Shown in pieces: positions 7,441 through 20,329 of a stretch of 64,000 nt of DNA. The stretch is from positions 192,001 through 256,000 of IMG/VR virus record IMGVR_UViG_2030936005_000025, one strand, 5' to 3'. This DNA comes from a virus (Duplodnaviria; Caudoviricetes). Positions within the stretch are counted from its first letter, which is position 1, and the number at the start of each line of letters is the position of its first letter. The position numbers were made by a program, and so were the translations under genes. The notes below the pieces were generated by a model that made no database searches, was not told the DNA's origin, and saw nothing but the letters and a program-made list of their open reading frames with translations.

Positions 7441-7740
7441 ATGTCACAAGTTGATTTGAACACCCCTGCTTTCGTTAGCTATTCAAAGGCTAACGAGTCT
7501 ATGCTTTCCTCATTGAAAAGCAAGAAATCTGTTAAGTTCGCCCGTAAAGGCTGGAACGGTAAACAACTCCACGTCCAGGTACACGGATCCATTCCAACCA
7601 GTCAGGTTGATTTGGAGAATGGCGAGAACGCCTACATCGAACCTTTCTTTGTTATCGTTAACAAAGCAAACAGCCGCGTGAACATCTGGGTACCATCGGT
7701 CTCAGATCTGCAAGCTGAAGACTGGTACGAAGTTCAGTAA
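7441..7740 (+). CDS. DUF2829-family protein (Tad2-like anti-Thoeris sponge candidate)
   Basis: Signature ARKGWNGK...WVPSVSDLQAEDW. Confidence 0.75.
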   Translation: MSQVDLNTPAFVSYSKANESMLSSLKSKKSVKFARKGWNGKQLHVQVHGSIPTSQVDLENGENAYIEPFFVIVNKANSRVNIWVPSVSDLQAEDWYEVQ

Positions 7741-8337: not shown

Positions 8338-8412
8338 AATATTATTTAGAGTCTATCTTATTTATCTTTTGACTGAACTTTCTCAGTCACTAAAAATATA
8401 AAGGTAAGTAAA

Positions 8413-8901: not shown

Positions 8902-8977
8902 GCTTCCATAGTTCAGTCGGCAGAACGGTCGCCTGTTAAGCGATATGTCGCAGGTTCGAGTCCTGCTGGAAGCGCCA
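8902..8977 (+). tRNA. trnN: tRNA-Asn (GTT)
   Basis: Canonical 76-nt cloverleaf: GCTTCCA/TGGAAGC acceptor, GTTC/GAAC D stem, loop CT-GTT-AA, GCAGG-TTCGAGT-CCTGC T arm, encoded CCA. Confidence 0.97.
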
Positions 8978-9002
8978 ATTTACATTCACATCTGCCAGTT
9001 AC

Positions 9003-9107
9003 TGCGGTCGTGTCTTCAGAGGCACCGTAAATGTATGATAGTGGATGATTAGTTTCTACCACTGGATATCTTTACAATAGTTAGGTTAAATCCCTAAGGC
9101 CGCGCCA
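9003..9107 (+). ncRNA. tRNA-like RNA 1 (acceptor and T arm, expanded anticodon domain, encoded CCA)
   Basis: GCGGTC/GGCCGC acceptor followed by GCCA; GTGTC/GGCAC arm; GTAAA/TTTAC long arm; TTAGG-TTAAATC-CCTAA T-like arm. Confidence 0.55.
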
Positions 9108-9116
9108 GATTTATAT

Positions 9117-9250
9117 GAGGGTCGTGTCGTGGGACACAAGTTCAGTTATGCTCTAGCGATCTAAGATCGTGAACCCGTTAGCGGTGAAGATAGACAACTC
9201 TACTTCAACTGTACTGAATGATAAGCCGAGTTCGACTCTCGGGATCCTCT
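9117..9250 (+). ncRNA. tRNA-like RNA 2 (acceptor and T arm, expanded multi-hairpin anticodon domain)
   Basis: GAGGGTC/GATCCTC 7-bp acceptor; GTGTC/GACAC arm; TTCAGT/ACTGAA stem; canonical CCGAG-TTCGACT-CTCGG T arm; no encoded CCA. Confidence 0.6.
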
Positions 9251-9323
9251 ATCAACTTCATAATGTCATGAAGATCCGTACCTACCGTTTTGGTTTTTGG
9301 TACCCAATCCATGAGGAAGTAAT

Positions 9324-9647
9324 ATGTCAAATTTAGAAAAAGAGTTAGAATCAAGATATTTCGCTCGCATTCCAGATGTTGGTGAGAGAACTAACAATGA
9401 TCCAGCTTATTTGATGTCAAGTAATGATGTCCTTAAACTGATCAAAGCTATGTACCAGGATGGTTGTGACGCATCTGGCGACAGTCTTGAACCTGAACGT
9501 TTTAAACACCCCATCATTCTGGATCGATCATCGGGTAAAGAAGTTATCACCAGTTATATGGTCCAGGGGATTATCAAAGAAGCCACCGTAAATCACGGAT
9601 GGTCTGATGTTAAGCTTTATGGTAAACAGCTTCTGTTTATTAAGTAA
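9324..9647 (+). CDS. hypothetical protein
   Basis: 107 aa; GAGGA RBS; terminator-like hairpin with T-tract near 9661-9690. Confidence 0.75.
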   Translation: MSNLEKELESRYFARIPDVGERTNNDPAYLMSSNDVLKLIKAMYQDGCDASGDSLEPERFKHPIILDRSSGKEVITSYMVQGIIKEATVNHGWSDVKLYGKQLLFIK

Positions 9648-10060: not shown

Positions 10061-10315
10061 ATGAAAGTTGTGATTTACGGAAAACCTGCGTGCGTGTTCT
10101 GTACTCGTGCGAAGGACTTAGTTAAGGCCAAAGGAATCGATCATGAGTATGTCGATATCATCGAAACCGGCATGGGTCGTGAAGGCCTGGAAGAAATTGT
10201 GGGAGGTCCTGTTACGACCGTTCCTCAAATCTTTGTCGATAATGTTCATATTGGTGGTTATACTGATCTGGTATCTCACCTTGTCAAGTCTGACGAATCC
10301 GAAGTAAAGGTGTAA
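10061..10315 (+). CDS. grx: glutaredoxin (NrdC/Grx-like)
   Basis: CVFC active site, TVPQIFV cis-Pro motif, HIGGYTDL. Confidence 0.92.
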   Translation: MKVVIYGKPACVFCTRAKDLVKAKGIDHEYVDIIETGMGREGLEEIVGGPVTTVPQIFVDNVHIGGYTDLVSHLVKSDESEVKV

Positions 10316-19777: not shown

Positions 19778-20329
19778 TTATGGAATGGTGATCGACATGC
19801 CATTGGTTAGATAGGTGTCTTTTAACACTTTCAAGAGAACCTCAGTCAGCGCATCTTCGTATCCAGAAGAATGCGGCGCAGAGTAAGCCAGTTTATTGTT
19901 TTGATAAATATCAATAAACTTCATGCTGCCGTTCTTAGTTTCTACCGTGGTGACAGTACCATATAAACCACCGGTGAATAACGAAGTAGTGAATCGATGA
20001 TCACGAATAGTATCAAGAATAGAACCCACTTCACTTCTGATAGAGCTTTCGATATATTTACGAGCGCCCTTGATGAGTTTTTCAGTAATGACGTGGATCG
20101 GTTCATGTAAGACTTGATCATGTCCCAGTAACAGTTCTACCCTGCAAATTTCTTCACCCTCAATGGTGATGGAATAAGAGGTGTCCCCCGTAGCTGATAA
20201 ACGAATTGCTTCAACGTTATTCTCTTTCCAGAGATCGATGTAATAAGGAATGTTATCCTTACTAACTGACTTCATGGCTTCTGAAAACTTGGTAGCGATG
20301 GTGTTGAAATTTTGTTTGGTAGCGAGCAT
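19778..20329 (-). CDS. hypothetical protein (single-gene early cassette)
   Basis: 183 aa; promoter at 20370-20377; hairpins on both sides. Confidence 0.75.
   Translation of the reverse strand: MLATKQNFNTIATKFSEAMKSVSKDNIPYYIDLWKENNVEAIRLSATGDTSYSITIEGEEICRVELLLGHDQVLHEPIHVITEKLIKGARKYIESSIRSEVGSILDTIRDHRFTTSLFTGGLYGTVTTVETKNGSMKFIDIYQNNKLAYSAPHSSGYEDALTEVLLKVLKDTYLTNGMSITIP

Follow-up and report, generated by a model that had tools for sequence, protein, structure and literature searches.

Look-alikes of transfer RNAs (tRNAs) that do not decode have been a puzzle of phage biology for about 50 years, since the species 1 RNA of phage T4, and none of them has an assigned function. RNA C and RNA D of T4 accumulate during infection and have no known role (PMC3014915, PMC9697503, PMC12685909). 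In the engineered tRNA scaffold of Escherichia coli (Ponchon and Dardel), a structured insert replaces the anticodon stem-loop, and the resulting chimera is processed and protected like a tRNA (PMC3753655). Here, we analyzed two tandem tRNA-shaped RNAs, designated E1 and E2, in a window of 64,000 nucleotides (nt) that covers positions 192001-256000 of the complete virus record IMGVR_UViG_2030936005_000025, a jumbo phage genome of 264,203 base pairs (bp). We estimate at roughly 55% the probability that E1 and E2 encode small and stable RNAs that do not decode, have a tRNA chassis, and act in trans through an arm at the anticodon position, the cargo arm.

Structure of the RNA array

E1 and E2 were encoded directly downstream of a canonical tRNA-Asn gene and in the same orientation. 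According to ARAGORN and Rfam, this gene, which opens the array, was the sole tRNA gene of the 264,203-bp genome. The array consisted of the following features:

8902-8977, plus strand: canonical tRNA-Asn (GUU), ending in GCCA (ARAGORN; Rfam RF00005, 71 bits)
8978-9002, plus strand: A/U-rich spacer of 25 nt between tRNA-Asn and E1 (sequence)
9003-9107, plus strand: E1, anticodon-less tRNA-shaped RNA of 105 nt (minimum-energy fold, alignment A1, covariation, model R1 at 119 bits)
9027-9075, plus strand: cargo arm of E1, 49 nt, in the anticodon position (invariant columns of A1, covariation of helix 3, clean deletion in phage pEt-SU)
9108-9116, plus strand: A/U-rich spacer of 9 nt, GATTTATAT, from the CCA of E1 to G+1 of E2 (sequence)
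9117-9249, plus strand: E2, anticodon-less tRNA-shaped RNA of 133 nt (minimum-energy fold, alignment A3, covariation, model R2 at 165 bits)
9140-9219, plus strand: cargo of E2, a three-way junction (fold, covariation)
9250-9251, plus strand: dinucleotide TA 3' of the E2 acceptor stem (invariant in five of five E2 copies; the bases beyond vary)

Folded singly with RNAfold, each element gave this cloverleaf both as the minimum-energy and as the centroid structure, with z values of -2.9 for E1 and -2.7 for E2 against dinucleotide shuffles. In a BLAST search of 50,697 phage records, the region was recovered from five jumbo phages with genomes of 253-277 kilobases (kb), in none of which it is annotated: Edwardsiella phage pEt-SU, Erwinia phage AH04, Shewanella phage SXP01, Klebsiella phage N1M2, and Pantoea phage Survivor. 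Two further IMG/VR genomes (G001 and G002) were recovered by pattern scans. The plus strand was fixed by the many G-U pairs that it allows and by the orientation of tRNA-Asn.

The alignment of E1 comprised six sequences with 66-86% identity to the window copy. Of its 210 cells, 96% paired, and compensatory changes were found in 18 of 35 pairs and in all four helices, including seven pairs of helix 3, the cargo. In the five-sequence alignment of E2, 95% of the cells paired and 13 of 46 pairs were compensatory. None of 500 shuffles was as good as the real alignment, either for E1 or for E2, and sliding the partners by 1-3 columns reduced the pairing to 33-49% overall (39-49% in E1). Both alignments are small and also served to derive the structures, so these numbers are supportive rather than final. 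Compensatory changes maintained helices 1 and 4 of E1 as well as helices 1 and 8 of E2, which form the acceptor and the T arm; in both elements a 7-bp acceptor is coaxial with a 5-bp T arm carrying a 7-nt T loop, as in tRNA. A sequence-only reading of this DNA had described two tRNA-shaped RNAs with particular arms, linkers, and T loops. All of these were located where it had placed them, and both folds and covariation agreed with it. It had also held that the elements are unlikely to decode, which is supported by the covarying acceptor/T-arm pairing together with the lack of a 7-nt anticodon loop in every homologue. Acceptor/T-arm pairing, whose loss in homologues it had named as one of the points that would count against it, was preserved in the homologues examined.

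The acceptor of E1 is formed by TGCGGTC (9003-9009) and GGCCGCG (9098-9104), with CCA at 9105-9107. A D-like hairpin, GTGTC-TTCAGA-GGCAC (9010-9025), abuts the acceptor with no 8/9 linker and is followed by C9026. The cargo arm starts with a 10-bp covarying stem and continues through an invariant GA/G internal loop (9037-9038/9065) into a 6-bp stem (9039-9044/9059-9064), one pair of which covaries (G-C to A-U in AH04). Its apical loop of 14 nt, ATGATTAGTTTCTA (9045-9058; also given as AUGAUUAGUUUCUA), was shared without change by five of six homologues (from phages that infect Erwinia, Klebsiella, Pantoea, or Shewanella), and AH04 differed at one loop position. The linker AATAG (9076-9080) and the T arm TTAGG-TTAAATC-CCTAA (9081-9097) complete the element. 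A GCCA end was encoded in four of seven E1 copies, and CCA was not encoded in the other three. The GTGTC arm that had been reported as identical in the two elements is indeed present in both of them here, but the 9-mer which they share, GGTCGTGTC, is peculiar to this phage: E1 copies elsewhere read GGTTATGTC, GGTTATATC, GAGGATGTC, etc. at this place.

In the E1 of pEt-SU (L001:1474-1536), the whole cargo arm was deleted between two CGCAG repeats and the chassis was kept (47 bits with R1). This arm-less RNA reads D-like arm, CGCAGTAG (also CGCAGUAG), T arm, with no anticodon stem underneath. The E1 of N1M2 retains both CGCAG repeats around its arm. A separate observation is an 11-codon frame at window positions 9045-9080, AUG AUU AGU UUC UAC CAC UGG ... 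CAR UAG, which was open in all six E1 copies. It was judged to be a by-product of the indel-free arm, because its variable codons alter the amino acid and no ribosome-binding site was present.

The acceptor of E2 pairs GAGGGTC (9117-9123) with GATCCTC (9243-9249). Its D-like hairpin, GTGTC-GTGG-GACAC (9124-9137), has a GUGG loop ending in an invariant GG and is followed by AA. The three-way junction is built from a closing stem (9140-9146/9213-9219), a variable hairpin H1 (9156-9170), and a long hairpin H2 (9181-9212). The base of H2, GCGGU/ACUGU, is invariant, and its tetraloop is CAAC (9195-9198). The linker GATAAG (9220-9225) leads to the T arm CCGAG-TTCGACT-CTCGG (9226-9242), whose loop, UUCGACU, looks canonical. 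CCA was not encoded in any of five E2 copies and UA followed the stem in all five; U at -1 and G at +1 were retained in four of five. The Survivor copy, only 57% identical, folded independently with the same branching.

Expression, distribution and the RNA island

No promoter-like or terminator-like site was found on the plus strand between 8900 and 9350; a promoter-like site was located at 8369-8397, ahead of the upstream open reading frame (ORF). Since E1 and E2 have no such site of their own, their RNAs would have to be cut from a longer transcript. They would be transcribed within a polycistronic RNA and released in the way tRNAs are: ribonuclease (RNase) P would cut the 5' ends (U-1/G+1 in E2; RCCA 3' end in E1), and RNase E together with 3' exonucleases would trim the A/U-rich spacers. 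The features of tRNA-type maturation were present, namely, the 12-bp acceptor/T-arm stack, U-1/G+1 of E2, the RCCA end of E1, and the A/U-rich spacers. In a metatranscriptome library, a contig of depth 57 covered E2 and stopped 8 nt inside its 5' end, which is a weak hint of expression. High depth over 8912-9013 in RNA runs was rejected as a sign of expression: the contigs responsible were short and carried tRNA genes of other organisms rather than sequence of this phage.

Members of the E1 and E2 families are known to date from about nine jumbo phages, which infect Enterobacterales and Shewanella. Nine related genomes were compared whole and tabulated together with this phage. Each of the ten genomes (230-277 kb) contained a single island of 0-3 canonical tRNAs (Asn, Ser, Cys, Tyr, Arg, Met, or Leu) and any mix of E1, E2, and two further RNAs, E3 and E4, in an order that varied by genome. 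Non-canonical RNAs equalled or exceeded the tRNAs in number in several of the ten genomes.

E2 was absent from the close relatives AH04 and G003 (83% and 80% protein identity) and present in pEt-SU, where the nucleotide identity of E2 was 91% despite a protein identity of 62%. Overall, E2 was 91-96% identical to the copies in phages with 62-83% protein identity. Relatives detected in four public sequencing runs had E2 and its 3' flank at 98-99% identity, whereas their upstream gene differed at 86 of 546 nt; tRNA-Asn and E1 were replaced there by 305 other bases. This near-identity next to a diverged gene, together with a presence that does not track relatedness, suggests that E2 is under very strong selection, or is exchanged among phages, or both. 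E1 and E2 appear to be accessory modules, both dispensable and exchangeable, of a small tRNA/RNA island in which a Tad2-like gene is also located.

Among 1304 ORFs compared with the nine relatives, none matched the distribution of E1 or E2 perfectly (7/8 at best for E1, 8/9 for E2). This speaks against an accessory protein dedicated to either RNA and in favour of a partner from the host or the phage core. Patterns of the E1 apex and the E2 core had no match in metagenome contigs or in 185,579 bacterial and archaeal genomes; a shorter E2 pattern was discarded, as it matched only by chance in coding DNA of unrelated phages. BLAST with the divergent E2 of Survivor found only itself.

The additional RNAs of the related islands were as follows:

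L001:1385-1480, L002:1620-1720, L004:1375-1470, L005:1220-1320, L007:1-100, and G003 near 248026: copies of E3
L003:1377-1462, L004:1590-1677, and L007:192-279: copies of E4

E3, about 100 nt long, is conserved and structured but not tRNA-like; its core, GGGUACAACAGGCCAGGG...ACCUGGGAUCCACUUCCCA, is enclosed by a long covarying closing stem. It adjoins E1 or E2 in six relatives, is the sole island RNA in G003, is absent from the window, and had no match in Rfam. E4, about 85 nt long, is the third RNA of tRNA shape, with a 6-bp acceptor, one long arm (UAGUCU/AGACUA) with a UACG-capped hairpin, and a canonical T arm, GUAGG-UUCGAAU-CUUAC. It scored 28.3 bits with the Rfam tRNA model, just below the threshold of 29 bits. 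Apart from this near miss, Rfam identified only tRNAs in the related loci. The spacer 8978-9002 of the window (AUUUACAUUCACAUC) was similar to the 5' side of the stem that closes E3 in relatives (AUAUUACAUAUCGAG) and may be a remnant of a deleted E3.

The next ORF (9324-9647) starts 75 nt past E2, and a glutaredoxin ORF follows at 10061-10315. ORF 7441-7737, which lies 1.2 kb upstream of the RNAs, matched the Tad2-like Pfam domain (Thoeris anti-defence 2; E = 7e-15). A hairpin, CUUCAU-AAUGUC-AUGAAG (9255-9272), and the leader of ORF 9324-9647 (9250-9322) were found without change behind tRNA-Ser in SXP01 and behind E2 in G002; because the same flank recurs behind both RNAs, it belongs to the downstream gene and not to E2.

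Class membership and possible functions

ARAGORN, with or without introns, identified tRNA-Asn alone in the window and in the whole genome. Rfam found nothing for 9003-9249 at gathering thresholds or at E<=10, and its only match was again tRNA-Asn. These were among the programs with which the sequence-only reading had proposed to look for a known class, and neither gave a strong match for E1 or E2. Both elements were unannotated in every GenBank record examined and had no Rfam family. They were rejected as decoding tRNAs: E1 carries a 14-nt loop on a kinked arm of 16 bp, the loops in the three-way junction of E2 have 3 and 4 nt, and all homologues are alike in this respect.

The further identities that had been suggested did not hold. 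For an intron-containing tRNA, ARAGORN with the -i option returned nothing, and no anticodon stem was left in the arm-less E1 of pEt-SU; a group I intron was also dismissed, as the inserts (49 and 80 nt) are too small and no Rfam intron family matched. Membership in transfer-messenger RNA (tmRNA) was contradicted by the absence of an ARAGORN tmRNA call and of an Rfam match at E<=10. Moreover, position 3:70 is C-G in E1 and G-C in E2 instead of the alanine pair G3-U70, and neither a supported tag frame nor pseudoknots were present. Y RNA or YrlA is likewise not the class, because Rfam gave no match, the elements end in an acceptor stem rather than a Ro-binding stem, and no Ro60/TROVE gene was found: PF05731 was absent from the complete 264-kb genome and did match in control genomes. 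Neither a CCA-adding enzyme nor RtcB was found in the genome. As for the idea of one common family, the covariance models of E1 and E2 failed to find each other and the two were distributed independently among phages; they are best treated as two separate RNA families, not demonstrably one.

Under the reading of E1 and E2 as stable non-decoding RNAs, the tRNA chassis would confer tRNA-like stability, as in the engineered scaffold of E. coli. The cargo arm would be the working part, and it would bind, and probably titrate, a factor that either belongs to the phage core or is conserved among the Enterobacterales and Shewanella hosts. The cargo was taken as the functional part because it is the best conserved and was lost as a unit. 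As to what it does, two roles were weighted equally and both are tentative: a decoy for a tRNA-recognising host defence or toxin enzyme, and a sponge or regulator of another host factor. An RNA subunit for a core phage protein is quite doubtful, and a mere processing signal is more doubtful still. The Tad2-like gene 1.2 kb upstream and the cassette-like behaviour of the elements would favour a role in counter-defence or host takeover. A bolder and rather unlikely extension sees the islands as toolkits of swappable RNA cassettes, in which the tRNA chassis would exploit the tRNA maturation of the host to supply aptamer-like cargo arms; those of E1 and E2 would inactivate two different conserved host enzymes, with tRNA-directed immune nucleases and factors of translation or RNA decay as examples.

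Several facts weigh against stable trans-acting RNAs. The counted structures were derived from the same small alignments of six and five sequences, and nearly all E2 covariation came from one divergent copy (Survivor, 57% identical). The T loop of E1, UUAAAUC, has no C56 and its D-like loop has no GG, so a tRNA elbow is unlikely in E1, which may weaken recognition by some tRNA enzymes. The 3' register of E1 is ambiguous: either a 6-bp stem is followed by G73-CCA, or a 7-bp stem with a U-G pair leaves no discriminator. The depth-57 contig does not end with E2 but extends into the gene downstream, and DNA may be present in the library. No target or partner was found. E1 and E2 had no BLAST match in E. 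coli genomes, and thus nothing suggests that the cargo copies an E. coli RNA. In this phage genome, a 12-nt complement of the E1 loop occurred only at 19935-19946, inside an unrelated ORF, with about 0.2 occurrences expected by chance; it was dropped as a target since this is no more than chance allows.

Some motif resemblances were considered by eye and rejected. A C/D-box K-turn requires a register contradicted by the 44:65 covariation; a CsrA site is represented by one GGA only, which is partly paired; no hairpin matched the repeats of Cas12a, type I-E, or type I-F systems; and mimicry of the anticodon loop of tRNA-Asn, tRNA-Lys, or tRNA-Arg was also discarded.

Alternatively, the RNAs could be anti-defence decoys that soak up a tRNA-recognising host immune or toxin enzyme, either through the cargo or through the half made of acceptor and T arm (which has GCCA in E1), and thereby spare host and phage tRNAs. 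Examples of such enzymes are anticodon nucleases, nucleotidyltransferases or acetyltransferases of the acceptor end, and nucleases that cleave the tail. The patchy, exchange-like distribution is typical of counter-defence genes, the Tad2-like gene is close by, the 0-3 tRNAs of the islands are too few to supplement codons, and titration is among the few roles open to a tRNA look-alike that does not decode. However, nothing in either cargo resembles an anticodon loop (a 7-nt loop and a U33 context are both absent, the E1 loop having 14 nt), and E2 is without CCA; in this form the proposal is rather unlikely. Less probable is processing punctuation in cis, by which tRNA-like folds would mark cuts of the RNase P and RNase Z type, separating and stabilising the flanking messenger RNAs and leaving functionless excised pieces, by analogy with mitochondrial tRNA punctuation and plant t-elements. 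It would be compatible with the lack of an own promoter or terminator, with E2 lying 75 nt ahead of ORF 9324, with the same 3' flank behind tRNA-Ser (SXP01) and E2 (G002), and with the RNA-library contig linking E2 to downstream genes. Acceptor and T arm are sufficient for cutting, yet the cargo is most conserved (the E1 loop; E2 at 91-96%; GCGGU/ACUGU; CAAC); in addition, three consecutive processing signals would be redundant and the neighbours of each element vary between phages.

That E1 and E2 are decaying relics, i.e., tRNA genes disrupted by insertions, now functionless and being lost, is very improbable: all helices, including those of the cargo, were kept by compensatory changes, E2 was far more conserved than the neighbouring genes, and both elements were retained in a genome that has shed all tRNAs but one. 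Their absence from close relatives, the arm deletion in pEt-SU E1, and the loss of CCA in three E1 copies are the observations that such decay would account for. Protein coding is scarcely credible. Three frames do exist, namely, a 55-codon frame at 9169-9336, a 49-codon minus-strand frame at 8913-9062, and the 11-codon AUG...UAG of the E1 apex (MISFYHW...Q*), open in 6/6 copies, which might be a tmRNA-like tag template. But the changes are compensatory in stems rather than synonymous, the variable codons of the mini-frame alter the amino acid, and this frame survives only since the arm has no indels. Neither Shine-Dalgarno spacing nor G3-U70 was found, ARAGORN made no tmRNA call, and the Survivor copy of E2 (57% identical) contains indels.

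Comparison with known systems

The engineered tRNA scaffold keeps the acceptor, T arm, and D arm and carries its insert at the anticodon stem-loop, a design that is also seen in E1 and E2; however, it is artificial and has a full D arm and elbow, whereas E1 and E2 have a minimal D-like hairpin and no 8/9 linker. If the cargo arms bind host factors, E1 and E2 would represent a new class of RNA effectors and natural counterparts of this biotechnological tool. YrlA is similar in being a non-decoding RNA that occurs in phages and has a tRNA-like domain accepted by tRNA enzymes (Chen et al. 2014, PMC4201824). Unlike E1 and E2, which end in the acceptor stem, its gene adjoins that of Ro60/Rsr, a loop closes its acceptor stem, and its termini lie in a Ro-binding stem. 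tmRNA also combines an acceptor and a T arm with a large insert between them and no anticodon arm, but it is about 360 nt long versus 105-133 nt for E1 and E2, which have no G3-U70 or pseudoknot ring. In the tRNA-microRNA units of murid herpesvirus 68 and in MALAT1 mascRNA, tRNA-shaped modules recruit RNase P and RNase Z and thus set the ends of another RNA. The t-elements of plant mitochondria act in the same manner (PMC1920247). In these processing handles the functional RNA lies beside the tRNA-like module, whereas in E1 and E2 the most conserved part is inside it.

The closest likeness was found in T4, where RNA D (rnaD, species 2) and RNA C (rnaC, species 1) are encoded head to tail behind tRNA-Arg in the phage tRNA cluster. 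As in E1 and E2, the first RNA ends in CCA and the second has UA past the acceptor stem; the RNA C family has UA(CAA) at this position, where E2 has UA. RNA C was aligned from five Tevenvirinae genera, and its loci were the following:

L006:1906-2048, minus strand, and L050-L053: RNA C, annotated once as tRNA-Lys and several times as hypothetical proteins

In this alignment, the RNA C family was an anticodon-less cloverleaf with compensatory changes in 19 of 46 pairs. It had a conserved tandem U-U in the acceptor, a long covarying arm I attached without a linker, a 10-bp arm II with an invariant CGUCAA loop, a canonical T arm, and a conserved 3' UACAA. RNA C thus resembles E1 and E2 in being an anticodon-less cloverleaf encoded directly downstream of phage tRNA genes. 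It differs from them in that the expanded arm occupies the D position and not the anticodon position, and RNA D differs in having no clear cloverleaf fold. Homology to RNA C was considered on the basis of short resemblances (CAACU...CUACUU, AAUAA-CCGGG, 3' UA) and rejected: the RNA C model R3, which scored 158 bits on T4 itself, found nothing in the window or in seven related loci at E<=10. In the reverse direction, the E2 model found only tRNA-Gly in T4 (19 bits).

Because RNA C shares the design of E1 and E2 and the R3 and E2 models do not cross-detect, E1 and E2 are best regarded as new families of an already known kind, with the expansion in a different arm. The occurrence of these families in the cultured phages AH04, N1M2, pEt-SU, Survivor, and SXP01 offers several testable systems. 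If the islands were indeed swappable RNA cassettes, they would contain RNA-only counter-defence genes, which would hint at a role of RNA C in T4. E1 and E2 add two further families of the same design that are unrelated in sequence to RNA C, apparently under strong selection and moving between genomes; since the design is shared without a sequence relation, the anticodon-less tRNA looks like a recurrent solution rather than an oddity of T4.

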